From an uncultured virus (IMG/VR IMGVR_UViG_3300027127_000005) (lineage: Duplodnaviria; Heunggongvirae; Uroviricota; Caudoviricetes): a stretch of 64,000 nt of DNA. The DNA is taken from positions 1 through 64,000 of the IMG/VR virus record IMGVR_UViG_3300027127_000005, one strand, 5' to 3'. A program made the translations under genes and the position numbers. The notes under the pieces were generated by a model. The model made no database searches, was not told where the DNA came from, and saw only the letters and a program-made list of their open reading frames with translations. This document shows, one piece after another, positions 13,333 through 52,813 of the stretch (positions within the stretch are counted from its first letter, which is position 1; every line of letters begins with the position of its first letter).

Positions 13333-13440
13333 AACTGCTCTTTGTTGGGTGCAATAGTATTTATATTAGAAGAGGGGACATTTCTGCCCCCACTATCTTA
13401 CCTGTGAAGATTGCACCCAACTCAGGCACTATTATTTATA
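13333..13440 (-). promoter_or_regulatory. Tandem late promoter / terminated small RNA / complementary leader module (copy 1)
   Basis: TATAAATA - gttgggtgcaat arm - ggggcagaaatgtcccc hairpin + pyrimidine tail - TATAAATA - attgcacccaac arm - ATG. Confidence 0.7.
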
Positions 13441-13445
13441 TTAAA

Positions 13446-13518
13446 CAGGCATACCTGGATTCGAACCAGGGATAAGGCTTTAGAAGAGCCGTGTGATAAT
13501 CCACTTCACCATATGCCC
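13446..13518 (-). tRNA. tRNA-Arg(TCT)
   Basis: Cloverleaf; anticodon loop CTTCTAA; GGTTCGAATCC. Confidence 0.9.
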
Positions 13519-13603
13519 AAGAGACCCTCTGGTTTGTGCATTGTTAAGAGGCATAGAGGGTGTGGGTCTTATTCAAAGTTTGGACCTTTGATGCCCGTAA
13601 GAA

Positions 13604-13855
13604 TTAACCGTTAAGGACTTGAGATTCAGAATCCTCTGGGTCAATTTTATTTAGCACATACTGAATCGGGTTCATTTTCTTTTGGATTTCACTTTCCAGT
13701 TCACGGAAAGTGCCAACCAGTGCTTCAAGAAGGTCAGAACCAGTCAAATCTTCGTAATCACAATCATCAAAGATGTTTTCTTGAAAATACTCAACAAGTT
13801 GTTCTTGAAGATTTTCAACCATTTGACGAGATGCAGACTTGTTGCGACGTGCCAT
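13604..13855 (-). CDS. hypothetical protein
   Basis: 83 aa acidic ORF. Confidence 0.7.
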   Translation of the reverse strand: MARRNKSASRQMVENLQEQLVEYFQENIFDDCDYEDLTGSDLLEALVGTFRELESEIQKKMNPIQYVLNKIDPEDSESQVLNG

Positions 13856-13893
13856 AATAAAATTAGTTGGTTAAGAAATTAAAGAATCAAAAA

Positions 13894-14124
13894 TCAAACA
13901 GAAGTTACAATACCATCTGCATCGGTGAGAGTCACTTCACCTTCATCTTCATCTTCAGAATCCACAGGTTCAGAATAGTTCTCAAGCACGGTGGAATCAT
14001 AGTTATCAAGTGCTTCGATGAGTTCAGCACCAGTTTCTGCTTTAGTCAGACTAACAATCAGTTGAGCAGCAGCAGGGTTGGTATCAACGATTTCGGAAGC
14101 AAGAGCAATCAGTTTAGCAGACAT
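13894..14124 (-). CDS. hypothetical acidic protein
   Basis: 76 aa ORF with a structured-looking 5' leader. Confidence 0.7.
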   Translation of the reverse strand: MSAKLIALASEIVDTNPAAAQLIVSLTKAETGAELIEALDNYDSTVLENYSEPVDSEDEDEGEVTLTDADGIVTSV

Positions 14125-16307
14125 TTAATGAAAAGTCAAGGGAACGAAAAATGGGTAACTTTATTGGTTAGATATTTCCAACCCATTGGCAAACCCGTTC
14201 CAAATGAAATCAAATACTTAAAGAGTATTCAATTTCAATTTCATCTTCATCGGGAAGACCAAGTTGAAGACCAATAAAGTCCTCATAATCAACACCGAGA
14301 AACTTTTTAGCAAAGTCCTCGTAATCATCGTGAAGAACACAAGTGTCAATCATCTTGAAACCTCCTTGACTTGATGAATACATCATAGCACAGGTTCTGG
14401 GGTCTGTAAAGTGTTATGTGCCAGAAGAATCAGTGGCACAAGGCACAATCAAACATCGTAAAACCGATTTTGCCTTATCTCATCTTGATAGGTTTTATTT
14501 ATCCATTTTTCATTAAAAGGAGATATCATATAATTATAATGTTCTACCCAACGACCAGAAAAATCTAGGATTAGATTATAATTTTGAAACTTATCGTAGA
14601 AACCAATAGAATCAAGGACTAACATGGTGTTGATTGATTACGAAGTAATTATAGCAGGATTTGAGGTGCTGTGATCTTTTAGTGTGCCAGTGCCACAAGT
14701 GTCACAGAGTATCAACATCCTCCAACAATTCTGGGTAGTAGTCTGTAACCTCTGTAATCAATTCTTCATCATTATAATCTGCTAGATTATCTTTCAAAGT
14801 ATCATAAACAAAACGTTCCATAGTCTTATAATCCATTCCTCCAATCGTTTGCTGGATATAATCCTCAACAAGTTGCTCACGATTAAAAGACATTTTGTTA
14901 AACACCAAGATTTCAGTATAAAGGTCAGACATAATTAGACAACATCAATTTCGGCAAGTTTCTTTTGTTGACGCAGTTCCTTCACAATCATCTGAAGTTC
15001 AGAAATATCTTCATTCAGAATTGTTAGGTCATCGTACATCATCTCTGCTTGATAAACACTTCTACACTTTTTATATTGCTTTGAGAGTTTATCAAACTTT
15101 TTCTTTGCTTCTTTGAGTTCTTTTTCGTACTCTTGAATGGATTTTGAATAATTCATTTGCGATAAGGACTAGACCAGTAAGAACGGAAAACAGTAATAAC
15201 AATAACAGCAGTGCTAATAACACCAACCAAACCAATAAAGGTAGTGGCATCACCAGTAAAATTGAATGTGTCGAACATCATTTGAGTGATTTACTTCGTA
15301 ATCATAGCACCCTTTCGGTGCGTAATCAAGTGCAAATGGACAGTGAAAAAACTGTCCATTGTTATACCTATGTAGACAATTAAGGAGTTGGGTCAAAATA
15401 AACGATTTCTTCCAGTGCAGGAAGAATCTCGTATTGAATAACATCAAGATGCTGGAGATTGATGGTCATATCCATCATATGAAGTTTATTCTCACGTTCT
15501 GCAAGTTCTTTAAGAATCTTGTAAGCACGTTCAACTTCTGAATATGCGTAAACAGTGTTACTCACCATTCCCCTCGTTGGATTAGAATCTTTTTAATTTC
15601 AGAAAATACAAACTTTTTCAGTTTAGCATCTTCAGTTGTCTCATATGCAAGATAGAGTCTCTTCAGATAATCTTCTTGTGTGCAAACTTTAACTACTTTT
15701 GCATCGGTCATTCCAATATCACGCAAAGGAGAACCTGCTTTAACTTTTGCCCTACCAAAGTTCCCAGATACAGAGCCTTGAGTGCGAAGTTTAGGTTTGA
15801 TTTTAGAAAGATTGGAAGCAGTCATTGCTCTTTTTGAATATGAGACTATTATAGGGCATCCACAGGGGGATTGGTGGGGTCTTGTGCCAGTTTCACAAGT
15901 GTCACAGGTTTGGTGAGTAAGTCATTTTTTCAGTTTCCTCACTCGTTCAAGATACTCATTACTCTGTTGATACAATCGTTCAATCAAATCCTCAATATCA
16001 GAGATTGCGATTTCATTATACTCACGATTCAGGTTTTCGCAACGCAGAGCATCAATTGCAGATTGTAATGCAATTGCTTGCATATGCATCATACTAATTG
16101 GTCCTCCAGTTGGTAATGATTCACACTCCATATTGTAGTAGTCATTATACCTTTGGAGAACACGATTACTCTTCTCCCTTCGTTCAGCAACTTCAAACAT
16201 TTCATCTGGATAAAATCTATCTTCCATAATGTTCCTTTGATTTCTCATATTATACAACAAAAAAGGTGCCCCGTAAAGGCACCTTGTTCCAGTTCGTCAA
16301 GTGTCCT

Positions 16308-17096
16308 TTATGATACTCTTATTCTTCTAGAAGTATCTATTCCTTTATGTTTTTGATATTTTGAAAGTCCTCCTGGTGTAGAAATATGTCCTGTTTCAAG
16401 ACACATCCATCTTTGAGAACTTGTTGTTTTTCCTGCTTGTATTCTTACTGATTTTGATACTTTTTTACCATCCTCACTCATCTGTTCTTTTGTTCTTCCG
16501 TGAGCACCTACTTTCAGTTCTGCTGCCCTTTTCCCTCCTATTTTTCCTGCTTCACTTCTTATTTTTTGTTTTTCTTCTTCCGTTAAAGAAAAAATTCCCG
16601 AACCTTGTTCTTTATTTTTTAATCCACCTTTACTTCTTTGTTCATTAGTTAAAGTAAATAAACCAGTTCCAGTTTTTCTATGTTTTTCTACCATTTTTTT
16701 AGAATTTTCACTTAATTGTTCTTTTGTGAGTGCGTGAAATCCCAATCCAAGTTCTTTTACTTTTAATCCAGATTTTTTTCCAATTTCTCTTGCTTGTTCT
16801 GTTGGTCTTATATAAGAAAATTTTGTAGATGTTTGATATGCCCTATTAGAAAAATGTGGATTTTCAACTACTTTATAATATTCTTGTAAAGTAATCTCAT
16901 CATCATATGCCTCTTCTCTTGTAGCATAATCACTTTTCAAGATTATCTTTTGAGTTGGTTTGAATGTCTTATCCCTGTAAGAACCAAAATATCTTACATC
17001 ATCTTCTGGTAAACATTTACAAGTTCTACTACCAAAATATCCTCTACCATATTCCTCATAGGAATAATAAACATAGTGATACTCTTTGAGTTCCAT
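16308..17096 (-). CDS. Seg-like GIY-YIG homing endonuclease
   Basis: HYVY...GYFGSR...YFGS...E...F-x-N; KxG repeats; C-terminal QRWMCLETG...GIDTSRR shared with 38641 and 40989. Confidence 0.75.
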   Translation of the reverse strand: MELKEYHYVYYSYEEYGRGYFGSRTCKCLPEDDVRYFGSYRDKTFKPTQKIILKSDYATREEAYDDEITLQEYYKVVENPHFSNRAYQTSTKFSYIRPTEQAREIGKKSGLKVKELGLGFHALTKEQLSENSKKMVEKHRKTGTGLFTLTNEQRSKGGLKNKEQGSGIFSLTEEEKQKIRSEAGKIGGKRAAELKVGAHGRTKEQMSEDGKKVSKSVRIQAGKTTSSQRWMCLETGHISTPGGLSKYQKHKGIDTSRRIRVS

Positions 17097-17200
17097 AGTT
17101 CTGCTTTATGTTGTGTCGCAATAGTATTTATACAAGAAAAGGTGCCCGAAAGCACCCAATCTCTGCTATGGTTGCGACACACATAAGCACTATTATTTAT
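17097..17200 (-). promoter_or_regulatory. Tandem late promoter / terminated small RNA / complementary leader module (copy 2)
   Basis: ATAAATA - tgcttatgtgtgtcgcaa - ggtgctttcgggcacc-TTTTCTT - TATAAATA - ttgcgacacaacataaagca - ATG. Confidence 0.75.
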
Positions 17201-17380
17201 CAGTATCTTCTTTATCCATTGTTTTTTCTATTTCAAGTTTAGTTTCTGGTGTTTTGGTTCCAAGAGTAAGAGTTTCAAGAGTTGGAGAAGGAATACGGGA
17301 CGTTTCTTTACCATTTGTATAGAAGATTAGGTCTTCACTCATTTGTATTTCAGTTCCTTTAGTGCCTCATAATTTATAAG

Positions 17381-17457
17381 AGTGTCTGGTGGGATTTGAA
17401 CCCACGTTGATTAACCGTTTTGCAGACGGTTGCCTTCACCACTCGGTCCACAGACAC
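17381..17457 (-). tRNA. tRNA-Cys(GCA)
   Basis: Cloverleaf; loop CTGCAAA; own TTGACA-N17-TATAAT promoter at 17469-17497. Confidence 0.9.
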
Positions 17458-17829
17458 AGCACCAGACGATTATACTATCAAATGTTAAAATTGTCAAAGG
17501 TTTTGTTGATAAAGGAATAAATCCCGTTGATGGTTTCAATCGGAACCCAAGCAGGTTCTTCACCATCAAAAGAAACCAGACCTTCTACTACATTTTTCTC
17601 TTTGATTTTGGAATAGATGGTTCGTGTTTGTTGAACCTTACTCAAAGGGTTGTTGGGTACAACCGATTGAACAAGTTGAGTTTTGAAGTAATCAAGAAGT
17701 TTTTGGTAATCTTCGTCGGATACTTTTGCTTGGAGTGGTTCTTTGTTCATAAAAATAGAGTATTTGTTATGTGTATGAGACTATTATAAGGCATCTGGTG
17801 CCCCTGTGGAGGGGTCTTGTGCCAGTTGG

Positions 17830-17979
17830 TCAGGTGTCCTCTTTCTTCTGCTTTTCAATAAGTTCTCTCAGTTTCTCTCTACCATAAGTCGTCAATTCTT
17901 TTTTAGAGTTTCTCAAGTCTTCAATCTCCCTTTCATAAAGAAAGAAACCATCAGGAAGATTCCCGTATTGTTCGGTCAT
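17830..17979 (-). repeat. ~150-bp duplicated segment (second copy ~20403-20553) carrying a ~49 aa ORF MTEQYGNLPDGFF...
   Basis: Near-identical sequence at both loci, ending in the right half of the dyad. Confidence 0.85.
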
Positions 17980-19640
17980 TTTTTCCAACCACCATTAATT
18001 GTAGCATAAAACTCATCAAAACAATTTAAACCGTGACATCTTTCATTTAATCTTTCCAAACTATGGGTCATCAAAAATCCCCAAATAGAAAATGCCTCCT
18101 TAACTCTCCAATATCCACCACGAAGTTTGAGATAAAGAATATAAAGTTCTTCATTCATCTCTTATCTCCTTGAACCATTTAGCAAATTCAATCCATTTTG
18201 TATCGTTGAATGCTTCTGAACGATTGGCAGTGCTGAAGTCTTGGTTCCCATTTTCAGCACAAAATTTATCAAGTGCGTGTTTAATCTCACACCTCATAAG
18301 GTATCGGTGCCTATTAACCATTTCGCAGATTTGTTCGTCAGTCATTGTTCCCAAGCATAAGATTTCAGGAATTCATTATCCCTTTGAAGTGTTTCAATTT
18401 TATCATACAAATCATCAATAATTTCAATCAAGGCATCATAATCAATCGTTTCAGTTGTTCTACCATCCTCCATATCCTCATAGTAGGAATACTGGAGTTG
18501 TTGTTTTAGGTTTCGTTCAGTCATAATAAGTGTTTGCGTGTCCGTAGTTCAAATAATACCAGAATAGGTTTCTCATTCTCTCTTCATTTGGATATCCATC
18601 AAGATGGTTCCACATATGATTTCTCCAACTATACACACAATACTCAAAGAGATGGATTGAGGTATAGATGTTCCACTTTTTCCAAGTGTCTTTCTTTTTA
18701 GTCATTTTCAGTCATCGCAACATCTCTTTCATTTTGCGTATTGCGTCATTAAATCCCTCAACAAGCAATTCAGTATTCACATTCTGCGAACCAGAAGCAC
18801 TTTGTTCTTCTAAAATCCAGTCTTCCACCAAATCTACAATATCATTACAAGTATCAAACTCGAAACCAAGTTCATCTACCAATCTATTAAAAAGTTTTTG
18901 TGCTTGGTGTTTTTTCACCAACCTATTCACAACTTCATCGGCAATTTTGAATCCAATTGAAGCAGGATTATCTTTCTCATCCCACTCTACTTCATCAGCA
19001 ACTTCATCTGGTGTATATTTTTTATAAGGATACTCTTCTATTTGTTTCATAACTTGCTTCTGGTTGTTTGAAACTCTCAAAGATACCAGGTGCCATAAAA
19101 TACAGAGCAGCAATACAAAATCCCGTGATTATTCCAAGTGTGTATGGTGAGTGTTTCATTTTTGGTTCTTACATTCACATTCATAATACCCCATCAAATA
19201 TGCCTTTTTGATTAGACCTTCTTCAAGTAATTGTTGGGATCTTTTTTTTGGTTTATTGACATTCATTTGAAAATAGAGGTCATCAATCACTTCTTGTTCA
19301 ATTTTCAGTTTGTTTTCAGTCATTGTTCATTTCCGAGTGTGTATGTTGAGATTTTTCAAGTTGTTCAATTCTATCACACAACTCTGTGATAATAGAAATC
19401 AAGGAAGGATAACAAATGGTTTCAGTATCATTCCCATCCTCCATATCATAATAAACAGAGTGAGAGAGTTCTTTCTTGAAGTTGCGTTCAGTCATTTGTA
19501 AAAAGATAGAATGTCCTCTGCGGTTTGGGTGATGAGTTCTTGTGTGATATGAGAATACTCACATTCTCTGGGTGTATAGGAGTATTATACACCATCCAGA
19601 GGCACCCAGAGAATCCCCTGTGCCAGTTCATCAAGTGTCC

Positions 19641-20030
19641 TCAATCCTTAATAAGTTCCACCAAGTCATCAAACTTATTATACACTTCTTCAAGACCATA
19701 AGCGTGTCCCTGTTCCCAAGCAAGGTCAAAACACATGAACCTTTTAGGATTATCAGTCACACCATAATCTTCAAACAAATCATTCTGGAACTGTACTTGA
19801 AGATTAAACTCTTCATCAGTATATTTTTTGCGTTGTGCCTTGTATGCGTCCTCATCCAAAATTTCTTGAATGAGAGCATTAGGATATTCTTCTTTTAGTT
19901 CTGCTTTATCCTTTTCCCAAGTAGGACCAGACCAAAGAACTACACCCTTATCATAAACATAAGAGGTGATGTAATCCTTTTTGTTGGGATAAACAGTTTG
20001 GGGTTTGGAGTAGTAATCAAAGGGTTTCAT
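19641..20030 (-). CDS. hypothetical protein
   Basis: 129 aa ORF filling the space between two dyad promoters. Confidence 0.8.
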   Translation of the reverse strand: MKPFDYYSKPQTVYPNKKDYITSYVYDKGVVLWSGPTWEKDKAELKEEYPNALIQEILDEDAYKAQRKKYTDEEFNLQVQFQNDLFEDYGVTDNPKRFMCFDLAWEQGHAYGLEEVYNKFDDLVELIKD

Positions 20031-20974
20031 CAGGGTTCTGTGTGTATGAGACTATTATAGGGCATCTGGTGCCCCTGTGGAGGGATCTTGTGCCAGTTCG
20101 TCAGGTGTCCTACAGATCCAAGAGTTTTTCATCGTCCATCGTGAATAATGAAGTTGGACGGATGAATATAGGTTTCACTTTCTGCTAAAATAACGAATGT
20201 TTCTTTTAACTCTTCGTCAGTGTAAGAAATATTACTCCCCCAATAACCTTGTTTTTCGGTGTCCCACCAGACAGATGATCTCAAATTTGCAAATTTTTCT
20301 ACGGACCAAATGCCTGTATGTAAGAGAGTTCCCTTATACCTATTACCATCAGGTCCTTCCAGTAAAAGAATTTTGTACATTACAGTTTGCCTTTAATACG
20401 TTCGTCAGGTGTCCTCTTTCTTCTGCTTTTCAATAAGTTCTCTCAGTTTCTCTCTACCATAAGTCGTCAATTCTTTTTTAGAGTTTCTCAAGTCTTCAAT
20501 CCCCTTTTCAGAAAGAAAGAAACCATCAGGAAGATTCCCGTATTGTTCGGTCATTAGAAATAATCCTTCCTCACACATTCTGTTTCAAGGTCTTCTACTC
20601 GGTCTTGTAAATCCATAATAATCTCAAGGATTTTCAAAGCATCAAGATTTCCATTCTCATCAGTAATAATTGAGAGATATGATTGATTTATAATCTCTCG
20701 TTGTTCTTCATATGGTTTGTAATGCCACTCTTTTCTTTGTTTTTGAGTATAAGTATCCCAATCTGCTGGATTGTATCTCATCTCAAATCTCTCTCTAAAA
20801 TATCAATACAATCTGCCCATCCACTGAAATAGTCAAAATCGTATTTGTTGTTGTCTTCTTTATGGTAATTTTTCAACCATTCTTTCACAACATTCACAAT
20901 CTCATTTGCGATTACATCACCAGATTGAACGGCATCGTGAGTATAATACCATTCCGTAAGTCGTTCGTGGAGTT

Positions 20975-21790: not shown

Positions 21791-22329
21791 TTCTTATTCC
21801 TCAAAATCCAAAATTGAATTTGGTCAGCAAGGTCATCAATACATTCATTAACAGACCACATATTTTTAGATGTGAATGTATCCATCCACCATCGGTCTAT
21901 CACCTGACGGATTGTTTTATTTTCTACATTTTCACTAATATCGTGTTCAATTTCATCATATTCGGGAGGGTCATCAACTGGAACTGCTTTTGGTTGTGTT
22001 ACTCGATAACCTGCTAAAAAAGCACCCCACCTTGCGTCTTCACTTGGAGAACCTAATGGATACTCACCACACCAGTCCTTATATGCTTCTTCTATTGGTG
22101 ATTTTGGTTTAGGATAAGCATTCTTAAGTTTTTCAAAAAACTCTTTTGTTTCTTCACAATATTCAACATACTTATCAAGCATGTGAAGTTCGTCAAGTGT
22201 GAGTTCAAGTGTGAATTTTTGTTCAATCATTTTGATTTCAAGTTTAGTTTCAGGGCATTTGGTTCCAACAGTTGAAGGAGAAATACGAAATGTTTCCTCA
22301 CCATTTTTGTAGTAGATTATATCACTCAT
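21787..22329 (-). CDS. mosaic hypothetical protein
   Basis: Shares KSPIEEAYK..GEYP and WW..T...W.VNEC modules with its neighbours. Confidence 0.75.
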   Translation of the reverse strand: MSDIIYYKNGEETFRISPSTVGTKCPETKLEIKMIEQKFTLELTLDELHMLDKYVEYCEETKEFFEKLKNAYPKPKSPIEEAYKDWCGEYPLGSPSEDARWGAFLAGYRVTQPKAVPVDDPPEYDEIEHDISENVENKTIRQVIDRWWMDTFTSKNMWSVNECIDDLADQIQFWILRNKK

Positions 22330-32100: not shown

Positions 32101-35100
32101 CAGTCATTTGCAGTCCCTCTCTGGGTCAAAGTCAATATATTCTACCACAGATTTTTTGATACGAGAACAAAGTGCTTCTTGTGCTTGTTCCAAAGTAGAA
32201 TACCCACCATCAAAAGAAGGTTCAACGGTATTATGCCACCAGAACAAAAACTTTTCTTGCGGATAATACCGAATAACATCACCATAAGTTCCTTTTTTAA
32301 TACGATACTTATTCATAATTAATCTAGGTCGTAAATGTATTCTACACTCTTTTCTTTTTTCTTTAATTTTTGAATGGCATATGTTGCTTCTTCAAGTGTC
32401 GAAAATCCACCATCACCATTATAAGGAGAGGAATAAATGAGATTATGCCACCAAAACAAATGCTTTACTTGTGGAAAATATCTTGTTCCGTCATCATCAG
32501 TTACTTTTTTAATGCGATAGTTTTTCATTGGTTCATATGGTAAAAAATCTTCACGGATAAGTCGGGATTTTGGAGGTTCTGGTTTTTTTATTTCACACCA
32601 CCATAAGTACCAAAGAGGTTTTTGAGTTCGTGATAAACAAGCACCAGTTCTTTATCCGGTGTTAGACATCCACTATCCTTTTCAGTTCGTAGAAGTTCGT
32701 AGAGTTCTTTTGCTTGGTCTTCGGTGAGTGTAAGATGGTAAGTTTTACTGATTTTAATCATAGTTTATTCCTATAAGTGTATGTAATTTCTCCAGTTTCC
32801 TTATTCATTAGGTATGCCCAGTCAGTTGGAATTGTATCACAACAATCCCGAAACTTTTCAGTTGAAGATACTTCCATCACAATAGGAAGATTGTTAGAGT
32901 GATGATAAAAGATTGCTACAAGAGTCATTGTGGGTCTCCTACAAGTCCAGTTGGATAAGATGAGTTCAGGTATTCAGCATCAGCACGACTTTCCCAACCA
33001 TTTTCATTACCAATTTCGTAGATTGCTCGGGCAAAGTTCAAGAGGTCTTCATTCTCTCCACACCATTCATTCACAGAAGTAAGAACATAAAGATGTTCAG
33101 ACGCAATTTGAAGGATTTGTTCGTCGGTAATCACTGTGGGTTCTCCGATTCAAGACTATAAGCACGAGCAAAATACCCCTGCTCAAAATACCACATTCTC
33201 AGTGCGTCAATAGCAAGAAATGTCTTTTCTTCGTCAGTAGTTCCTGATTTGACGGCATTGAAAACTTTTGTTTGAAGTTCGGTCATTGGAGTTTAGATTT
33301 GAGTTCTTGGAGTTCTTTTTGTAGTTTATTGATTTGAGCAGATTGATAATCAATTTGATTATTTTGTTTGTTTATAAGTTCAACTATTTTGATGATTGAA
33401 TCTCCATATGTAACTACGGCACTTGAAAGTTGTTCAATTGATTGTTGGATAGTCATTGGAGTTCCTTTGTTTGTCCTACTATTATAAGGCATCACAGACC
33501 ACTCTGGATGCCTACTGTGCCAGTTCTTCTACTGGTACACACTCCCTTTCTGTCCTGGTTCATTACTACCCGTGCATTCTAACTTATGGTCGGTTGCTTT
33601 GGGGCATCTTTTATTACCACAAGTAGGGCACAGAACCATTCTAAACATACGTTGATGCCCTGTCTGTTCTTCACAACATTTTTGACACCAACAGTTTAGA
33701 TTATTTTGTAGTTCGTAGAGGGGTTTAATCATTTCTCACTCCAATACTCTTCATAATCATAAAAATCTCTGGGTTCTACATATGGTTTATCACAACCAGT
33801 ATAAGCATACATTTTGTTGTTTATTTTATACCAATCGTGGTTGAGACAATACCAGAAATCCATAACATACCAATCATAAAACCCCAAACTTTCTCTATAT
33901 GTGAGAGCACACTCCAGAGTGTCCTTTGGAATGGTCATCCAGATTTTCCACTTATCAAAGATTATTCGTGTGAGGTTCATTTTTGGTTCTCCTCTATCCA
34001 AACATTTACAATACCATTAGACAAATCCTTTTCATTATTATCTTCATCATAAACAGAGAGTTCTACATTATCAGGAGGATTGAGAACTTCTTTGAGATAT
34101 TCTGTGAGTTGTTTGTTTTCAATCATTTCTGGTTCTCCAACTTCAAATAATCATACTTAATTTTACAATCTTTTGGGTTCTCCATACACAAAACAAGAGT
34201 TTCATTCACTCCTTTTTTGTATCCTTGTCCGTCAGCAAATAGCAACATACCCACAAGAGAAAAACAAAAACCGAATAAAAGAATAAGTCCCCACAAATTA
34301 TCATCATTACTATACATTTCAGTTTCTCCCAACAAAATCTTTGATTTGTGGAACTTCTCCACAAATCTCATTCACTCTTCCTACTGTTTGGTCTTTGAGT
34401 GCTTGACGACACTCCAAGTTCTTATTGTATGTTTGTTGAAAGAGTGCTCGTTGTTGTTGCTCACTATAGGTGATAGAAGTAGCAGCAACGATTATAATAA
34501 AGAATACAGACAAAACTGCCCAATCAATTTCTTCAAAGTTTTTCATACATTTTCATCTCCCATTACGATTGAAGTGTCATAACTACCTTCATTATAACCC
34601 ATTTCGTGAATTATTAGAGCAAACTTCAGAAGGTCTTCTTCATCACATTCCCAGTAAATGTCGTTTGTTGCTTTACTTATGTGTCTATCAAACCCACAGG
34701 TTTTAGCAAGAACAAGAATTTCTTCATTTAAAATCATTAGAGTGCCTCAAGTTCATCAGCAAGTTCAATAAGGTCTATGGAACTAACCACCCATCTTCCA
34801 CAATCATCATCACCATGATAGTATCCAAATTCACTTACAATCTCACGAATAACAGCAGAAACACATTCTTCATCATAGTAAACAGATTTTTCTTTTGCTC
34901 TTTGATATGCTTTCATAATCCTTTTTGCTCTTTCAGTCACAGTGCCTCCAGTTCCTCACACAATTTTAACACATCAGCACACATAATCACACCAGGACTT
35001 TGTTGGAGTTGGTTGATGACTTCACGGAGAACATTAGCAATCGCATCATCATTAAGTTTTTCAATAATAAAATCTTGTCTTTTATCTGCGAAAGTGAGAT

Positions 35101-38100
35101 AAAATGCTTCCATAATCCTTTGTGCTCGTTCAGTCATAGTGCCTCCAATTCATCAGCAAGTTCAATAAAATCGTCAGCATTCAATTCGGCAAGACCATAA
35201 CTATCCCATTCAAAACAATTAGCAATCTCACGAATAGCAGCAGCAACTCCATCCTTTGGAAAGTTGTAAGTATCCTCTGCTTCGTATGCTTTCATAATCC
35301 TTTTTGCTCTTTCAGTCATTTCAGTTCTGGTGTTGTTTGAGGTGAAGTTTCAGTGAAATCAAGATAACAATTGTATTCTGAACCCCAGTTATGAATTTTT
35401 AGTGTTTTGCCAGAGAGGAATGTGATTTCAAGATACTCTCCATATGCAGTATCATAAAGAGAATAATCCTTGATGTCTCCACTTTCTTTCAGAACTTCCA
35501 ACTCTTCAGGATGTCTGATTTTAAATTTTTCTGAGGTCATCAGGTGTCTGTGTCTATGAGAGTATTATAAGGCAAAACACACCCCATCACAAGGAGGAGT
35601 GTGCCAGTTCTTTAAGTGTCCAAATTGTAAATATACTCTACATTTTTTTTATTTCTTGCTCTGGAGTTGATATCTTGAAGTGCTCCATCATAAGTTTCAT
35701 AAAAACCAACAAATGAAGAACTTCTTGGATATATATTTTCCCAAAAAAAGAATAATACTCTTTCTTGTGGATAATATATTGCTCCCAAAACATCGTGATT
35801 TACTTTTTTAATACGATACTTATTCATAATGTCTTTGTGTCTATGAGAGTATTATAGGGCATCCACAAGGTCTGTGGTAAGGTCAGTGGTCAGTTTGGGA
35901 AGTGTCCTTATTTGTCGTGAAACCAATTGTAAGCAATCATCCACAATACTCCCCAAGCAGTTCCAAACATAAACCACAAAACATACTGTGGAAAGAACAA
36001 AGCAACTAACAGAACACCAAACCAAAGTGAAGGAACATAGATTGTTTTTAGAGATTTGATGTATTTGAGTAGTTTAGTCATAGTTATAATCAGTAGGATA
36101 AGAGGAGTTCAGGGATACACTTTCTTGGTGACTTTCCCAACCATTTTCATTACCCATTTCATAAATTGCTTGGGCAAACTCAATAAAATCTTCGGGAGTT
36201 CCGAAATATTCAGAACAACTACCATCGTCTCTCAATCCACCCTCTTGAAAGTGAAATCTTACAAGTTCAAGAATTTGTTCGTCAGTCATAAGTACCTCAT
36301 CATTCGTGAGTAAGAATAGTTGCAAGTAGAAGGGTCTTCTGCGTCAAAAGAGGTTTTACATTCCTCATTTACTTTACGCATCGTTTCTTCAAAGATAATG
36401 TCCTTTTCCAGTTCGTAGGGTGATGCTACTTTGAGATAGGTTTGATACTGATACTCGTTGAGGTCTTTGGATGGAATGTATCCCTTATATGAGATGATTT
36501 GTTGAATTGCTTTTTTAGTTGGTTCTTCCCAGTCCTCTTTGAAGTTGAACATTATTCATTTCTCATCAAAAAATTTACCATTAAATCTACCGGGATAAAG
36601 TTTTTGAACACCACCCCGTCCATACTTGATTTCACATTCTAACTGAATAACATAAACATAAACTGATTTAGGAACTTTGAAGTGTTCCAGTTCTCTGGTC
36701 TCCTGATTATAGCAGGAAATATGACAAGTCATTTTTTAATTCCCCCCACCTTTTTCAGTTACTTTTTTTATCCATTCTCTTTCTTTTTCAACCCTGTCTT
36801 TTGTCAAAATTTCATATTGTTCGTCGGTAGGAATAGGAGGAAGTTTTACCCATCCAGAAGGTGTTCCACACATAAAATCTCCATCACTCCACATCCACAG
36901 AGTTCCATCGGCACATAATGCTCTATTTCCAGAGATTTGTATAGGTGTTCTTTCAGTCATTCTTCTATCCTTTCATAATCAGCAAAACCATCTGGATTTA
37001 GATGTCCTACTGTGAGTTTGATACTTGTTCCAGTAAGTTCGTGTTGAAGAACAACTCTATGAGAATACTGCTCCATTACAACATAAACATCATTAGAGTT
37101 CTTATGTTTCCATTTAGAACCTATTGGTATTTCAGTCATTCTTCATTCTCCACAAAGTTTAAGTGCTGGAACTTTTTCGTGAGTTGTATCCTTGGTCCAA
37201 GAAAATACCTCTTCGTGTTTTCCATAATACCAAGCATCATGATAGTCCAGTAAGATTTCAAGTTCTTCAAAATGACTAACATCATCTACTCCACCCTCAT
37301 AACCACGAACAACCACTCTCAAATCTTGTGGATACTCTTTAAGTTTTTCAATCAATTCAGCAACAGTCATTCTTGCCACCCCTCAAAGTATTCTGTGAAA
37401 AAGTTAAAACTCAAACCAACCTTACCAACTTGAAAATCTACTCCAAGAAAAGAAGAAGAAGTAAGAAATGAGAGCATGATGTGTAATCCACCATTACTAT
37501 GAACTAACCTACTGGGGTTCTCATAATTCACCCAAAGTAATGAAAGATTTTTGATGATGCCAAACTGCCAGGTGTGGTCAGTATCCCCATCATCCCAAAC
37601 TTTTTTGTCATATTGAAAAAATTTCACTGTGGGTCTCCAATAAGTCCAGTAGTTCCAAAAGTATCAAATGTAGTATCTTCCATCCACTTTCTCAAATCAA
37701 CGATTTCATACCAGTCATATCTATACTTTGATTTTGATGATATTTCCTCCCATTTTTCTTGTGCTTCCTCTTTAGTTTCATAACAAGCAATCCAATCACC
37801 AGTATAAGCAGAAGGGTAATAGTTGTCCCCCGCAATCAAAAGATAAGGTTTCATTTCTCCACCTTTTGGCAAATACCAGTATCAGGAAGAACTCCAAGAA
37901 TATGTGTGGCAAATATAACTCCACCAAGCATTACAGTTGGAGCAATCAGAAGAAACAATAGAATGCTAAGAGGCATAGCAAGGTAATCTTGAAAAAAGTA
38001 TTTCATCGGTCAAAGTATCCAGAAGGTTTGTAATCACTAATGTATTGAGTTTTTAGTTGAATATCAAATGGGTCAATATCAGGGTGTTTTTCTTTGATGA

Positions 38101-38640
38101 AGGTTTTACACTCATCACGGGTAGAAAAGGCACAGAGAATGTTTCCATGATAAAGTGCGACTTCAATTGCTTCAATCATTCTTCTACCTCAAATCCACCA
38201 ATACCAATATCTACAAAGGTAGAACCATCTACATCCTCAAAGAGTTGGAAGTCAAAATCACCTTCGTAAAAGTGATACTTATGCCCATCTGTGATTTTTA
38301 CTTCTTTGTCTTGTGGAAACTCTTTGAGTTTCTCAATCCATTCAGCAACAGTCATTAGTAATCACCCTCCTCCACAGGAAATAGTTCATCATACTCTTCA
38401 TCAGTCAGAGTGAGATACTGAACATCAGCATCTTGGTGTTCTTCGGCATACACCATACGGTAATGATTGAATTGGTTGAGGTCTGTGCTGCCGTATTCTA
38501 CGACACCATCAACAAGACACAAATAATTGAGAGACATCGGTTTGGTTTCTTATAAGGTTATTATACGACAAAGGGCACCTGTTTTCAAGTGCCCCTGTGA
38601 CGGTTTGGAAAGTGTCCCTGTGACGGTTTGGAAAGTGTCC

Positions 38641-39405
38641 CTATGATATTCGTTTTCTTTTAGAAGTGTCTATATCTCTCTTTTTTTGATATGTTGAAAG
38701 AGCACCAGCATTACTAATATAACCTGTTTCAAGACACATCCATCTTTGAGAATTTACTTTTTGAATAATTTTTAACCTTTCTTCTTTTGGTATAGAAAAG
38801 GCACCGATTTTTAGTTCATAGGTTTTTTTACCACCCATTTTACCATCTTTTGATTTCTCATCTTCTGTCCTACTATGAATACCTTTACCAAGTTCTTTAC
38901 ACTTATTTCCACCCATTTTAGCAACTTCAACTCTTTCTTCTTTTGTAAAATTGTGAATACCGACTTTCAATTCTACAAATTTATTTCCAACTTCTTTTCC
39001 AATATTTTGTCTCAAAATTCTAACATCTTCACTAATATTACCCATCTTTTCTCTGGTTTCTATTGAATGAACTCTCCCTTTATTTTTTTCAGTAATTATC
39101 TCACTAAATCTATTTCTACATTTTTCATAAAGATAAGAATTGTAATATCTTTTGTTATTTTTCATTCTCATATGAGCATTAGTCATTTTGTGAGTTTTAT
39201 AATGATGAACACCATATCTCACTATACATATTTTTTCAAGTAGTGCGTGAGCAACATAATGTTCTCTTGAAGTAAGAACTACAACTCTATTATTCTTTCC
39301 GTAAATACTTACTGGAAAGATGTGGTGTTTTTCTGTATATCCATCAGGTGGAGTTCTGTTCTCTGCTTTCCTGATGAGATTACAATAAACTTTTAGATAG
39401 TTCAT
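38641..39405 (-). CDS. HNH (MobE-like) homing endonuclease
   Basis: YTEKHHIFP...NNRVVVLTSREHYVAHALL; C-terminal QRWMCLETG module; start MNYLKV follows a late promoter. Confidence 0.85.
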   Translation of the reverse strand: MNYLKVYCNLIRKAENRTPPDGYTEKHHIFPVSIYGKNNRVVVLTSREHYVAHALLEKICIVRYGVHHYKTHKMTNAHMRMKNNKRYYNSYLYEKCRNRFSEIITEKNKGRVHSIETREKMGNISEDVRILRQNIGKEVGNKFVELKVGIHNFTKEERVEVAKMGGNKCKELGKGIHSRTEDEKSKDGKMGGKKTYELKIGAFSIPKEERLKIIQKVNSQRWMCLETGYISNAGALSTYQKKRDIDTSKRKRIS

Positions 39406-39500
39406 TTCTACTCTGTAAGTCGCAATACTATTTATACAAGAAAAGGTGCCCGAAAGCACCTCTTCCACCTATAATGCGACTTACAGGTATTGTTATTTAG
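39406..39500 (-). promoter_or_regulatory. Tandem late promoter / terminated small RNA / complementary leader module (copy 3)
   Basis: CTAAATA - ctgtaagtcgca - ggtgctttcgggcacc-TTTTCTT - TATAAATA - tgcgacttacag - ATG. Confidence 0.7.
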
Positions 39501-40045
39501 TCATTCTACAATCAAACAATAACGACACTGAAAACTAAAAGTTTCTTTTTGCCAGATTTTCTTCACACCATTTTCTTCCCAAGAATACACAACTTCATAA
39601 CAAGGGTCTGTGCTCCCATAAGAATTGAGACCTTCAACAGTCACATAACCTTTGGAACCATCTGCCCGTGCCCAACGAGAACCAACTTGGATTTCGTGTG
39701 GTTTGAAGAAATGACGGACCACTGCTTTGCGTCCATCTATGATTTCGGTTTCATAGTTCATTTTAGTTCTCCATAAAGTTCAAGAATACGACGAGCAACT
39801 ACGATCGCAAGTTGTTTGTTCCCAATAGACACACATTCGGTGATACTTTTAGTTGTTGAATCGTGGTTCTTTTCAGTGTATTCAATATACACCCCACCAT
39901 TATCTGCTTGAAGTTTTGCAGTATGAGTTACACCTTCTGCTTCATCAGTGAGTTCATAAACATCAGTGGTGCTATGAAGAATTTCAGTTCCAGGAATAAG
40001 TCTGTAGAAGTCGGTCATCGGTTTGTTGTCTATGAGAGTATTATG

Positions 40046-40330
40046 TCAAATGTAACGAGGAGAACTTATTTCAGTCCAAGGAAGAGTTTTTAGTTCTTCA
40101 TATGTAAATTGAATACCATCATCAAGTCGTGCTTCATTTTTATAGAGATAGAACTGCTTGAAATTCACAACAGTTCCTCTCAAATCACCATATTCATCTA
40201 CTTGATAAACAAGAACATCACAATACTTATTTCTATCATAAGTCAGGATTGTTGCCTTACGAATAGGTGCTTTTTCTCCCGCAACATCACCATAAGATGG
40301 AATAGGATAATCAGTAAAGGCATCAAGCAT
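40046..40330 (-). CDS. hypothetical protein (paralog of 6126..6392)
   Basis: High similarity to 6126..6392, including the upstream promoter/RBS. Confidence 0.8.
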   Translation of the reverse strand: MLDAFTDYPIPSYGDVAGEKAPIRKATILTYDRNKYCDVLVYQVDEYGDLRGTVVNFKQFYLYKNEARLDDGIQFTYEELKTLPWTEISSPRYI

Positions 40331-40988
40331 TTGGAGTTCCTTTGTGTATGAGAGTATTATAGTGCAAAAAGGGCACCTGTGGAGTGCCCCTGTGCCAGTT
40401 CTTCAAGTGTCCTGATAATACATCCCCTGTCCATCAAAAATATAATCAGGTTGAGAATACTCTAAACCACTTTCATATAACTTTGTTTCTCCTTCTGTAT
40501 AAACCTCAAAAGAATGAGTTTTCAAGTATTCTTCCATTTGTTCGTGGATTTTTACTCCCCGTTTATATGCTTCTGCTTCTTCAGGAACTACACTATCAAT
40601 AGCAGCACGGAGAGCAGCAGTAATACCTCCTTGCTGATAGTTTGGGGGCAATTCACGATAGAAGGCATCTACAACTGCTTGTGCTTCAGGAGTAAGTTCA
40701 GTCATCGGTTAGGATTGATGTAATTGGGCAGTTGAAAGTTGATGTAAGGTCTTACCTGATTTCCATTCTCATCATAGATACCATCAAAGTCAATCTCTGC
40801 ATGAGTGTCGCAATCATAACTATAAAAATCAAAAGAGGCATTATAACGACGCAGGAGTTCCTCAAAGTCCCTCATAAATGCGTCGGTGATTTGTTGTTGG
40901 TCAGTCATCGGTTTGGTTGCTTATGAAGTCATTATACAACGAAAAAGGGCACCTGTGGAGATGCCCTGTGCCAGTTCTTCAAGTGTCC

Positions 40989-41774
40989 TTATGATACTCT
41001 AACTCGTTTGGAAGTATCTATACCTTGTTTCTTTTGATATATTGAAAGTGGTCCTGGTGTTGTTATATATCCCGTCTCAAGACACATCCATCTTTGAGTA
41101 CCTGTAGTTTTCCCTCCTTTCTTACCACCTTTACTTCCACCTATTTTACCACCATTAGAAGATATAATTTTTCTTTCCTCTTTAGTTAGAGCAAATATTC
41201 CTACTCCAAGTTCTTTTGTTTTTGTACCACCTTTTTTACCATCTTCAGTCATTTTTTCTTTACTTCTTCCAGCAACTCCAATACCAAGTTCGCAATTTCT
41301 TTTACCTACTTTACTTGAAAGTTTTGTTCTTTCTTCTGGAGGTACGGAAAAACAACCTATTGCTTTTTCAAAAGTTTTTCTTCCTATTTCACTTCTTTCT
41401 TCTGGTGTTAAGGCAAACAAACCTCTTTTTTCTTCATACATTTTTTTACCTGTTTTTTGTCCATTTTTTCTAGAAACATCAATAGAAAACTTTCCACCAC
41501 ATGCTTCGTTAAGACACCATTTATCAGTATTAAAAACTGGTCTAATTAATCTTTCTTCAATATCTAATGCTTCTAACCAACCTTCATCTGTGAAGTTAAA
41601 AAGTTGAAGTATCTGCTTTTTAGGAGTATAAAAATTCCACATCCACTTATGAGTTTCAGGAGAACCCATATAGTATTCATTAAACTTCTTCTCTTTATGA
41701 ACACCATAATAGTAATACAAAACTTCCTCAAAGATAATCTTGTATATGTAAATTCTTGGACTTTGTGCAGTCAT
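40989..41774 (-). CDS. Seg-like GIY-YIG homing endonuclease
   Basis: IYIY...YYYGVH...YMGS...E...CLN; KKGG repeats; C-terminal QRWMCLETG...GIDTSKR. Confidence 0.75.
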   Translation of the reverse strand: MTAQSPRIYIYKIIFEEVLYYYYGVHKEKKFNEYYMGSPETHKWMWNFYTPKKQILQLFNFTDEGWLEALDIEERLIRPVFNTDKWCLNEACGGKFSIDVSRKNGQKTGKKMYEEKRGLFALTPEERSEIGRKTFEKAIGCFSVPPEERTKLSSKVGKRNCELGIGVAGRSKEKMTEDGKKGGTKTKELGVGIFALTKEERKIISSNGGKIGGSKGGKKGGKTTGTQRWMCLETGYITTPGPLSIYQKKQGIDTSKRVRVS

Positions 41775-41883
41775 AGTTCTTTCTGTTACAGTTCGCAATA
41801 ATATTTATACAAGAAAAGAGGACATTTCTGCCCTCTAATCTTTACCTGATAAGGTGCGAACTATAACAGGTACTATTATTTAT
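41775..41883 (-). promoter_or_regulatory. Tandem late promoter / terminated small RNA / complementary leader module (copy 4)
   Basis: ATAAATA - ctgttatagttcgca - gagggcagaaatgtcctc-TTTTCTT - TATAAATA - tgcgaactgtaacag - ATG. Confidence 0.75.
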
Positions 41884-42130
41884 TCAACAATTGAACATAA
41901 AGGGAACACTCGCACACTTGAAATAAATCCTGGTTTTGTATATTTGTCCTTATAGTTTGAAGCAAAAATTCGTGCTTCATTTTGAGTTTCAAAAACTCCA
42001 AAGTATCGGTGAAGTCCCTCTACACCTTCATATTTGTTATAAAGTCCCACTATCCACTTATGAGAATGTTCTGGATATGAATCATTTTCGGCAATCCAGT
42101 CGTAGTATGCGTCCTTATTCATTTCAGTTT

Positions 42131-42412
42131 TCATTGTGTTACCTCAGTAGTAGTTACTGGTGGTGGAGGTGGTGGCAGTATAGCAGGTTGTGGTGCTACT
42201 GTTTGAACTGTAGGTTGTGGGAGATTTACAGGTTCTGGAGCAACTTGTGGTTGTTGTGTTTGTTCAAGTTTCTTTTCCAGTTCCATTACCTTTTGGTCCA
42301 ATGGAGTCAAAGGAACTTCTTTTTGTGAATCTGCCAGTTTCCAACCAGTAGCACCAGCAGCAAAGATACTGGCAAGAGCAGCAACAACAGAAACAGTCTT
42401 AGAAAAACTCAT
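42131..42412 (-). CDS. membrane-anchored proline-rich protein
   Basis: N-terminal hydrophobic helix followed by a Pro/Gln-rich tail. Confidence 0.7.
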   Translation of the reverse strand: MSFSKTVSVVAALASIFAAGATGWKLADSQKEVPLTPLDQKVMELEKKLEQTQQPQVAPEPVNLPQPTVQTVAPQPAILPPPPPPVTTTEVTQ

Positions 42413-42598
42413 TTTGAATCAGCAATTTTGTAAGGGAACTCTTCGTCCGACAACTCATCATACAGCAGTCGGGCAAAAATTAGGTGGGGTCTTGTGCCAC
42501 TTTCAATTGCGGAACTGGTGGCAACAGTCCAAAAAATATCAAGTTCGTGTTTTGGTGGAAGAGGTTTCATAAATTTTAAAATTACACCTATTATTATA

Positions 42599-43366
42599 TC
42601 ATAAAATTTGACGAACTTTCCATCCTTTATGTTGTTTTAACTTTCCCCTTAACACTTTTGAAAGGCAAGAAGAATCTAATCCATATTTTTTACCAAATTT
42701 CATCAAAGTAGTAAATTCCTCTATAATTTCTCCATTAGGTGAAGTAAAAAGAAAATGTCTTCTCTGCAAATTTGAAATTGTGTTTCTATGTTCTTCACTT
42801 AAAATTTTATTTTTCATTTTTCTTTTTGTTTCTTCACTTATTTTTTTCCCAATATTTGCTTGTCTTATTTTTTCTTTAGTTTCTTCAGTATGCAATCTAC
42901 CCTTACTACATTTACTTATTTTTTCTCTTGTTTCTTTGGATATATTTTTTTTAGATTCTCTCATTTTCCTTTTAGTTTCTTCCGTATGAAATTTACCAGT
43001 CATAGATTTACTTTTTTTTATTCTAGTTTTTAAGGAATAAACTCTATTTTTTGATGATTCACTTATTTTTTTTAATGCTTCTTCAGAAAAATTTGAAGAA
43101 CCTTGCCCACCATCAGTCCTATTGAGTAAAATACCAGTTTTCAAATTTTTCCTACCAAAAATCGCAATCATATAAATTTCGTGTCTAAATGCTTCTTCTT
43201 CGGTTAAATTTTGCTTTAATAATATTACTCTTGATTTATCTTTAGGTGGTTTTATGTCAGTTTTTTTCCTACTATAATATCTTCTTCCACTACCTTTACC
43301 TATGTAATAAGGAGTCCTATCTTCTCTTAAATACGCATAGGTATAAAATCTTTTAGGATTTACCAT
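42599..43366 (-). CDS. GIY-YIG homing endonuclease with NUMOD3 repeats
   Basis: FYTYAY...PYYIGKG...E...LLNRTDGG; repeated HTEETKxKM; C-terminal HTH-like segment with HKGW. Confidence 0.9.
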   Translation of the reverse strand: MVNPKRFYTYAYLREDRTPYYIGKGSGRRYYSRKKTDIKPPKDKSRVILLKQNLTEEEAFRHEIYMIAIFGRKNLKTGILLNRTDGGQGSSNFSEEALKKISESSKNRVYSLKTRIKKSKSMTGKFHTEETKRKMRESKKNISKETREKISKCSKGRLHTEETKEKIRQANIGKKISEETKRKMKNKILSEEHRNTISNLQRRHFLFTSPNGEIIEEFTTLMKFGKKYGLDSSCLSKVLRGKLKQHKGWKVRQIL

Positions 43367-43470
43367 AACTGCTCTTAACTTGGTGGTTATTAGTATTTAT
43401 ACAGGAAAAGCACTCGAAAGTGCTTTATCCCAACCCGAAAAGAACCACCAAGTCAGGCATTTTTATTTAT
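43367..43470 (-). promoter_or_regulatory. Tandem late promoter / terminated small RNA / complementary leader module (copy 5)
   Basis: ATAAATA - acttggtggtt - aagcactttcgagtgc-TTTTCC - TATAAATA - aaccaccaagt - ATG. Confidence 0.7.
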
Positions 43471-43485
43471 CAGGTAGTTTCTTCA

Positions 43486-48830: not shown

Positions 48831-48906
48831 TATTATATAGTACCATAAAGAGTTTTATGAGTCAAGTTTCAATATAATGTTCTATGAAATGACAGTTAGC
48901 ACTAAG

Positions 48907-52763: not shown

Positions 52764-52813
52764 TATTTTGGTTAAGTATCTAACTTATTTATACAAGTAT
52801 AATACTTAACCAA

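Follow-up and report, generated by a model that had tools for sequence, protein, structure and literature searches.

Homing endonucleases are selfish genes, and they must do the phage that carries them almost no harm. Here we describe five nuclease-like genes of an uncultured virus (IMG/VR record IMGVR_UViG_3300027127_000005), each headed by a copy of the same compact control module in which a late promoter is enclosed between complementary arms. They lie in a stretch of 64,000 nucleotides (nt), hereafter the window, which belongs to a contig of 71,415 bases. All genes of this contig are on one strand, 25 tRNA genes among them, and the sole cultured relative among 50,697 phage records was the freshwater Synechococcus phage S-SRM01 (Kyanoviridae); the source is a freshwater T4-like cyanomyovirus related to this phage. 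We call the modules m1 to m5 and the open reading frames (ORFs) downstream of them HEG1 to HEG5.

The nucleases are of several kinds. HEG1 (12757..13332, minus strand, 191 amino acids (aa)) is a homing endonuclease with GIY-YIG and NUMOD3 domains (Pfam PF01541, E 2.7e-6, and PF07460; phrog_314, phrog_5123 and phrog_7168). HEG3 (38641..39405, minus strand, 254 aa from ATG 39405) is an HNH-type homing endonuclease (phrog_655, E 1.2e-28; phrog_12434), HEG4 (40989..41774, minus strand, 261 aa from ATG 41774) is homing-endonuclease-like (phrog_314, E 3.9e-8), and HEG5 (42599..43366, minus strand, 255 aa) is a homing endonuclease with NUMOD3 repeats (PF07460, E 1.1e-8; phrog_15526 and phrog_314). 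The ATGs at 39405 and 41774 are likely the ORF starts, rather than those of longer GTG/TTG frames. Homing-endonuclease PHROG labels were found for four of the five, the exception being HEG2 (16308..17096, minus strand, 262 aa), which matched only phrog_24910 (unknown function, E 8e-4). The 5' end of HEG2 is similar to an S-SRM01 gene annotated as HNH / NUMOD3, and its C-terminal half shares 42-44% identity with HEG3 and HEG4. Pfam gave no match for HEG2, HEG3 and HEG4. In BLASTP comparisons, the C-terminal halves of these three proteins share 38-44% identity, and the N-terminal halves of the nucleases are mutually unrelated. The initial annotation of this DNA had the module shared by HNH and GIY-YIG families, and the matches agree: GIY-YIG by Pfam (HEG1), an HNH-type PHROG (HEG3) and three further unrelated N-terminal types by BLASTP. 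Within HEG5, a direct repeat of about 86 nt occurs four times (window 42804-43087; 63-74% identity to the reference copy; start-to-start distances 51, 96 and 51), a position consistent with the NUMOD3 repeats of the protein.

All five modules are on the minus strand and share one element order, read directly from the sequence. An octamer ending in TAAATA (P1) is followed by a local hairpin that contains arm A (hairpin 1), by a GC-rich terminator hairpin with a CTTTTCTTG-like T-run, by the late-promoter motif TATAAATA (P2) 3 nt past the T-run, and by a leader of 20-25 nt, arm A', that ends at the ATG of the nuclease-like ORF. Hairpin 1 opens with a purine 5 nt past P1, and the terminator loop contains TTCG in m2, m3 and m5 and GAAA in m1 and m4. 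The unit measures about 110 nt, with the helix between arm A and leader enclosing terminator and late promoter. In m1, the upstream unit (13368..13440) has P1 TATAAATA at 13440-13433, arm A from 13427, which is the predicted transcription start (+1) of P1, and the end of the T-run at 13368; P2 (13365-13358), its predicted +1 (13352) and the leader occupy 13333..13365, before ATG 13332. In m2, the upstream unit (17135..17201) has P1 GATAAATA at 17201-17194, arm A from 17188 (predicted +1) and the T-run end at 17135, and the downstream part (17097..17132) has P2 at 17132-17125, a predicted +1 at 17119 and the leader before ATG 17096. The upstream unit of m3 (39439..39501) carries the variant P1 ACTAAATA at 39501-39494, with arm A from 39488 (predicted +1) and the T-run end at 39439; its P2 is at 39436-39429 and the predicted +1 at 39423, P2 and leader spanning 39406..39436 before ATG 39405. 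For m4, the upstream unit is 41812..41884 (P1 AATAAATA at 41884-41877, arm A from 41871 as predicted +1, T-run end 41812) and P2 with leader is 41775..41809 (P2 at 41809-41802, predicted +1 at 41796, ATG 41774). For m5, the corresponding units are 43404..43471 (P1 GATAAATA at 43471-43464, arm A from 43458 as predicted +1, T-run end 43404) and 43367..43401 (P2 at 43401-43394, predicted +1 at 43388, ATG 43366).

This layout at five nuclease genes had been claimed by the initial annotation, and reading of the sequence, RNA folds and a covariance model bear it out. Its description of the first promoter as ATAAATA-like stands as far as the TAAATA ending, common to all five octamers; a perfect TATAAATA is found in m1 only, and m3 has ACTAAATA. 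The covariance model of the module family matched only m1 to m5 in the 71,415-base contig, with E-values of 4.6e-12 (m1, match 13324-13452), 1.9e-18 (m2), 3.7e-17 (m3), 7.3e-14 (m4) and 4.6e-15 (m5), and gave no further match there at E<=1. No Rfam family overlapped any module in the window, nor was there an Rfam match at E<=1 in two S-SRM01 module loci, and a scan for sigma-70-like promoters reported no -35/-10 pair within the modules.

The minimum free energy fold of each read-through RNA is a long-range helix of arm A and leader around the terminator and P2 (-37.3 to -47.0 kcal/mol in m1 to m5), with P2 inside the helix in all five. The arms had been said to be complementary each to its own leader, and they are: in a five-by-five matrix of arm-by-leader energies the diagonal runs from -18.2 to -23.5 kcal/mol and the off-diagonal cells from -4.6 to -15.1 kcal/mol. 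Two details of the earlier description change. Arm A is present and pairs with the leader, but it is itself folded: the 5' strand of hairpin 1 consists of its 5' half and the loop of its 3' half. The leader arm was described as covering most of the 5' untranslated region (UTR); the helix does span the leader from about +1 to a purine-rich, Shine-Dalgarno (SD)-like AGAG/AAGC stretch, but leaves the AUG outside. Besides the terminator hairpin, the loop of the long-range helix holds the 3' strand of hairpin 1.

The module is not peculiar to this virus. A pattern search for the T-run and P2 matched at least 125 IMG/VR stretches, and the family counts given below are from the matches listed. We examined 128 instances, 123 from IMG/VR and the five described here, leaving out two loci whose match lay too near an end. 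Thresholds on the terminator hairpin and the arm-leader duplex were passed by 113 of the 128, three of which were false by eye, and there are at least 105 true IMG/VR modules, with 94 distinct sequences. By the covariance model, S-SRM01 has six copies, at about 17.9, 48.4, 51.2, 55.9, 62.4 and 192.4 kb, and four long IMG/VR contigs have one or two apiece. The initial annotation had proposed such a search for homologues, with attention to promoter 1 and the terminator: by sequence every module has the terminator hairpin and its T-run (median -15.4 kcal/mol), and P1 is kept in 91 of the 94 and absent from the other three. The association with nuclease genes is tight. Among distinct complete downstream ORFs, 47 of 56 match PHROGs labelled homing or HNH endonuclease, six match only PHROGs of unknown function that co-occur with the nuclease ones, and three have no PHROG match. 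A single arm type can stand before as many as 13 different ORF N-termini and behind many different upstream flanks, which makes the module a portable head rather than the partner of one protein, and places it at junctions of modular shuffling.

The long-range helix covaries, and it does so as RNA of the sense strand. In a MAFFT alignment of 90 distinct modules, the RNAalifold consensus recovered ten long-range pairs, and compensatory changes were present in all ten, as the initial annotation had claimed on the strength of five copies. Taking these with six pairs of the terminator, 90.1% of cells are paired, against 66.5% in shuffles and 40-55% in slid controls, and the covariation score is 0.563, against 0.201 in shuffles (a score attained by 0 of 500). 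Since the sequences are related, the shuffle control overstates significance, and the weight of the argument lies on the slid controls and on how many pair types occur. The complementarity is specific to the cognate leader and translation start region: cognate arm-leader duplexes have a mean energy of -20.4 +/- 1.8 kcal/mol, against -9.8 +/- 3.8 kcal/mol for leaders of other types. In 30 of 91 modules some leader of another type pairs as well as the module's own, because arm typing split close relatives. In 88 of 91 arm-leader duplexes and 83 of 91 local hairpins, the sense-strand RNA has a greater stability than its antisense counterpart, so that selection acts on the RNA of the gene strand and not on DNA repeats; G-U pairs make up 49 of the 1329 pairs of the arm-leader duplexes. 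These covariation data are clean.

Hairpin 1 has its own record of selection. It is formed by the first 5-8 nt of arm A, from the conserved purine, and a segment just 3' of the arm, and it reaches -4 kcal/mol or better in 88 of 91 modules. Its pairs were counted per sequence, anchored and with shift controls, since the MAFFT columns shift its 3' strand between rows. By this count 86% of cells are paired, against 28-49% with a shifted partner, four positions have alternative standard pairs (for example, C-G 57 / U-A 32, and G-C 31 / U-A 25 / A-U 10), and cognate stems have a mean energy of -6.5 kcal/mol, against -3.5 kcal/mol for swapped stems. The 5' strand of arm A has in consequence two covarying partners, the local strand of hairpin 1 and the leader.

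The motif of P2 is closely tied to nucleases throughout the contig. TATAAATA occurs 13 times on the minus (gene) strand and never on the plus strand; six of these sites are in the five modules and five lie just 5' of other nuclease ORFs, with sites outside the modules at 50778 and 56740 (HNH genes), at 52793 (a DUF559/Vsr-like gene) and, beyond the window, at 70065 (GIY-YIG-like). The HNH gene at 11469-11945 is without this motif. In S-SRM01, 26 of the 32 coding-strand TATAAATA sites lie 10-45 nt 5' of an ORF of at least 80 aa, several of them directly after a terminator hairpin. This succession of terminator hairpin and TATAAATA is a common arrangement before late genes there, which is why the module looks like a generic S-SRM01 intergenic unit to which an anti-leader arm has been added. 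The nucleases with a late promoter and no adjacent arm have no remote complement of their leader in the contig either: the leaders behind 70065, 56740 and 50778 gave only chance matches of 9-11 nt, the longest inside an ORF.

Simpler arrangements occur in the same contig. At window 52770-52815 (minus strand), directly after a tRNA-Lys gene, a plain 12-bp hairpin with TATAAATA in its loop precedes the ORF 52170-52763 (minus strand), a DUF559/Vsr-like nuclease (PF04480, E 8.8e-4; PF18741, E 7.7e-5); this hairpin is a predicted lock of the classic T4 type, with neither terminator nor P1. Past the window, at about 69990-70100 of the contig (minus strand), the GIY-YIG-like nuclease ORF follows a terminator hairpin, TATAAATA with ATAGTG (the same bases as behind P1 in the modules) and a 23-nt leader, and it has no complementary upstream arm. 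At window 49470-49510 (minus strand), after a tRNA-Pro gene and before a small non-nuclease ORF, a hairpin TTGGAGA / TCTCCAA carries ACTAAATA in its loop, which hints that NCTAAATA can occupy the place of TATAAATA.

Our results suggest that the module is probably a portable 5' control cassette of free-standing homing endonuclease genes, which elaborates the lock of T4 in which a late promoter sits within a hairpin. In T-even phages, homing endonucleases are silent on early and middle transcripts, where a hairpin masks the ribosome-binding site (RBS), and a late promoter inside the structure lets late transcripts escape (PMC2988022). This precedent is as the initial annotation had it. In the modules described here, the GC hairpin and its T-run would stop transcription arriving from upstream early-region genes, and P2 would start a late mRNA with an unstructured, translatable leader of about 20-25 nt. 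RNA that reads through would carry arm A and could form a long-range helix of 13-19 bp between arm A and leader, burying the 5' UTR up to the purine-rich SD-like stretch. Because the 5' UTR would be buried in this way, the nuclease is not expected to be translated from early or read-through RNA. Insulation and silencing in cis are the function that the evidence supports best, and we think it the likely one.

Several observations sit uneasily with a simple lock. An efficient terminator would leave little read-through RNA, and how strongly selection could act on a lock for so scarce a transcript is hard to say. The long-range helix ends 6-10 nt short of the AUG; an extension that would bury the AUG, made of ATAGT between P1 and the hairpin with ACTATG, showed a weak association (two-by-two table 7/4/22/55, Fisher p = 0.036, from related sequences). 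The 3' strand of hairpin 1 covaries independently and competes with the leader for arm A, and a plain cis lock needs no such local partner. Finally, a lock in cis leaves unexplained why P1 is conserved in 91 of 94 modules at a fixed spacing. The covariation of hairpin 1 is, at the level of sequence, the strongest hint that the upstream unit may have a life of its own. This half of the module (P1, hairpin 1 and terminator) is formed like a small transcription unit and may yield an additional, free anti-leader RNA. With or without such an RNA, it would form the 3' end of a transcript each time the terminator worked.

These points suit a second explanation, which we put forward tentatively: arm A would serve mainly as the pairing end of a separate small RNA, made late, about 48-61 nt long and running from P1 to the terminator. 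The loop and 5' stem strand of its hairpin would base-pair with the P2 mRNA in trans, over its first 13-19 nt, and limit the dose of nuclease. Both units are on the minus strand, so this would not be a true cis-antisense RNA; its complementarity would come from an inverted repeat on the same strand, and each cassette would have its own address. A small RNA acting in trans, as proposed by the initial annotation, could work alongside the cis lock and need not replace it. The predicted RNAs have a median length of 54 nt within that range, their cofolds in trans with the P2 mRNA (first 70 nt) are favoured by -9.2 to -18.6 kcal/mol once the cost of opening hairpin 1 is deducted, and the five cassettes of the contig make five mutually poorly pairing addresses. 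The formation of hairpin 1, its four covarying positions and the weakness of swapped stems also fit an RNA with its own fold. Precedent comes from the antisense RNA CfrI of phage S-PM2, in the same phage group, which is linked to a homing endonuclease (PMC2984593).

The case for such an RNA depends on whether P1 is a promoter. TAAATA lies 61-74 nt 5' of P2 in the 91 modules that have it, always 5 nt from the conserved purine where hairpin 1 begins, and the bases that follow it are sharply conserved (A, T, R, R, T, then R, C) without length variation. The octamer is NATAAATA in 61 of the 91, which is the late-promoter consensus described for cyanomyoviruses, phages that encode homologues of gp55, gp33 and gp45 (PMC2984593). 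In S-SRM01, octamers of this class are concentrated on the coding strand, with 32 sites against three on the opposite strand for TATAAATA, 30:2 for AATAAATA, 13:2 for CATAAATA and 14:0 for GATAAATA; of the 89 coding-strand sites (against seven), 58 have an ORF of at least 80 aa starting 10-45 nt further on. The remaining 30 of the 91 modules have NCTAAATA, which weakens the case for a small RNA. ACTAAATA and TCTAAATA together count 19:5 in S-SRM01, seven of the 19 before ORFs, and no strand bias is seen there in control octamers whose position 2 is G or T. Given this strand bias and position before ORFs, both classes of P1 motif look promoter-like in S-SRM01.

Other observations speak against P1 as the start of a functional small RNA. 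The three modules without P1 keep arms, terminator and P2, and one of them precedes an intact nuclease ORF of 231 aa. The heptamer ATAAATA is not enriched on the gene strand of the contig (24 observed, against 26.3 +/- 5.0 in shuffles). P1 supplies the stop codon of the upstream ORF in 34 of the 54 modules with a clear upstream ORF, for which reason part of its conservation may have another cause. The stem of hairpin 1 can be extended by one pair 5' of the predicted P1 +1 in 72 of 90 modules. Repressor and target would be made from the same class of promoter at the same time, and the module-free nucleases have no remote complement that could act in trans on their leaders. The same complementarity must work in cis on read-through RNA, which is the established mechanism. 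The discrete RNA proposed by the initial annotation thus has P1, hairpin 1 and favourable trans energies for it, and the NCTAAATA octamers, the modules without P1 and the action in cis on read-through RNA against it.

The stop codons point to a third explanation, which we consider doubtful, namely that the TAAATA block is not a promoter but a single-stranded, A/U-rich stretch that serves processing of the RNase E type, or the context of an upstream stop codon. On this view the upstream unit would form the structured 3' end of the preceding gene's mRNA and could be released as a fragment derived from its 3' UTR. In addition to the 34 modules with the stop inside the motif, 11 more have it at most 4 nt before the motif, and NCTAAATA variants are a third of the P1 cases. 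RNase E processing has been reported for the transcripts of segB, segG and Aeh1 mobE (PMC2988022). However, the motif is kept also behind tRNA genes (m1 and modules L035, L087, L067 and L116) and in m5, where the stop lies well upstream; TAAATAA gives stops in two frames only, and the spacing to the hairpin is invariant, as for a start site.

It is very improbable that the module serves chiefly for recombination at the DNA level, as a late-promoter counterpart of the promoter-early stem-loops (PeSLs), in which case its own conserved blocks would mediate modular shuffling of nuclease ORFs and its arm complementarity would have little regulatory meaning: arm types joined to up to 13 ORF N-termini and many flanks, the PeSL-like repeats elsewhere in the window that coincide with strain-level contig joints, and the documented role of PeSLs as terminator/promoter cassettes mediating shuffling (PMC2839356, PMC4122927) agree with it, but the compensatory changes that preserve all ten helix pairs and the G-U asymmetry in favour of sense RNA in 88 of 91 modules indicate selection on RNA structure, and shuffling and regulation are compatible. 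A ribonucleoprotein or guide role, also raised by the initial annotation, is unlikely, given that one and the same arm type heads many different nuclease ORFs; arms and ORFs have been shuffled independently, with no sign of RNA-protein co-evolution.

Transcription around the cassettes offers further leads. A sigma-70-like promoter, TTGAAA-17-TATAAT (11 of 12 positions), lies just 3' of HEG3 (38560..38588, minus strand), where early transcription might restart. Just 3' of HEG4 (40931..40967, minus strand), a GC stem-loop with a T-run overlaps the sigma-70-like promoter TCCACA-17-TATAAT, in what may be a PeSL-like composite, and a third putative promoter, TGGAAA-18-TATAAT with TG, lies at the 3' end of HEG5 (42593..42622, minus strand). 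As a class, sigma-70-like sites are not above shuffles (30 found, mean 29.6). Early transcription restarting behind the cassettes, as these good single matches after three nuclease ORFs might suggest, is a lead only. Each of 20 metatranscriptome runs contains between 7 and 40% of the words of 35000-44900. Contigs of four riverine metatranscriptomes cover the small flanking ORFs and hardly the three nuclease ORFs, gaps that strains without the cassettes may explain. These contigs have loose ends near cassette borders, at 39521/39540, 40985 and 41918; contigs show no transcript starts, ends or strand.

Repeats of PeSL-like form, with a GC stem-loop overlapping a sigma-70-like promoter, are found at window 35838-35861, 38588-38640, 40343-40421 and 40942-40997. 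Metatranscriptome contig joints (35863 to 40967, 35863 to 40383 and 35867 to 42483) fall at these repeats, which suggests strain-level insertions and deletions by recombination between them. Other structured RNAs are present in the window, all on the minus strand. The abiF RNA motif (RF03085, 48.8 bits, gathering score 37) at 13524-13560 is directly 5' of tRNA-Arg (13445-13519) and m1. A transfer-messenger RNA (tmRNA) gene of the permuted, cyanobacterial type lies within the tRNA block at 48593-48846 (RF01851, 84.9 bits; RF04321, 68.2 bits), where ARAGORN missed it. A group I intron match (RF00028, 58.8 bits) at 55905-56156 is situated between the ORF 55210-55878 and tRNA-Met (56223-56296).

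The down-regulation of homing endonucleases in T4 is multi-layered, each case seemingly ad hoc. Here, one portable unit of about 110 nt would combine terminator, late promoter and translational lock, and it heads many unrelated nuclease ORFs in more than 100 freshwater phage contigs and one cultured phage, as a natural expression insulator might. It also marks nuclease cassettes in metagenomes where the proteins escape Pfam, as do three of the five described here.

The principle of this unit is already covered by the T4 lock, by metagenomic TATAAATA hairpins and by PeSL cassettes, as far as their descriptions go (PMC2988022, PMC2677866, PMC2839356, PMC4122927). The lock has been described for I-TevI, I-TevII, I-TevIII, segB and Aeh1 mobE, and also for e and soc (Edgell, Gibb and Belfort 2010, PMC2988022). 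As in that lock, the upstream arm of the module is complementary to the leader region of the nuclease mRNA, TATAAATA is placed between the arms so that late transcripts would be without the upstream arm, and the genes are homing endonucleases in early regions. Unlike the plain lock described there, the module has a strong intrinsic terminator in the loop, directly before the promoter. It also differs in that the upstream arm is in a covarying hairpin of its own, with a second late-promoter-like motif before it at fixed spacing, and in forming a family that is portable, conserved in sequence and provided with many arm addresses.

For free-standing endonucleases that lie in fractured genes of metagenomes, hairpins with TATAAATA in the 5' UTR have been reported (Dassa et al. 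2009, PMC2677866). These too are aquatic phage-like loci in which complementary motifs flank a T4-type late promoter before GIY-YIG or Vsr-like nucleases, and in the module as in these hairpins the promoter is followed by ATAGT-like bases. Their gp41-1 case is a plain hairpin without internal terminator, and the accessible text of that report mentions no upstream promoter motif or local hairpin. PeSLs (Arbiol et al. 2010, PMC2839356; Comeau et al. 2014, PMC4122927) resemble the module in joining a terminator stem-loop and a promoter in about 100 bp, in being repeated in hyperplastic regions, in ending at the SD/ATG of the downstream ORF and in marking junctions of modular shuffling. As described, however, PeSL promoters are sigma-70 early promoters before ORFans, without arm-leader complementarity, whereas P2 is TATAAATA. 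In the literature consulted we found no description of a terminator-containing, twin-promoter module or of a covarying local hairpin, although a viral structured-RNA catalogue of 2023 could hold the motif unnamed: its entries include nameless candidates upstream of HNH and GIY-YIG genes (PMC10690425). CfrI of S-PM2, a non-coding RNA of a cyanomyovirus, is likewise linked with a homing endonuclease gene (Clokie, Millard and Mann 2010, PMC2984593), but it is described as a true antisense of about 225 nt on the opposite strand that overlaps the endonuclease gene and psbA, whereas the candidate RNA considered here would have about 54 nt, lie on the same strand and address only the leader.

If the upstream half of the module is also released as a small RNA, phages would have in it a new class of regulatory RNA whose target addresses are built in. 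RNA-OUT of IS10 and the type I antitoxins with short complementarity are RNAs shown to exist and to act in trans, and they are transcribed from the opposite strand or divergently. Should the module also act in trans, it would resemble RNA-OUT/RNA-IN and type I toxin-antitoxin pairs, in which the loop of a small stem-loop RNA pairs with the 5' end and translation start region of the mRNA for a potentially harmful DNA-cutting or toxic protein. The candidate RNA, which is predicted from sequence, differs from them in being encoded in tandem on the same strand. Each cassette could perhaps encode its own late small RNA of about 54 nt that base-pairs in trans with its cognate nuclease mRNA at the 5' end, a same-strand analogue of RNA-OUT made from an inverted repeat. 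The address-like specificity of such RNAs would let five or six cassettes coexist in one genome, and T4-like phages would in them have their first family of trans-acting regulatory small RNAs, one that travels with selfish nucleases as a self-limiting control of their dose.

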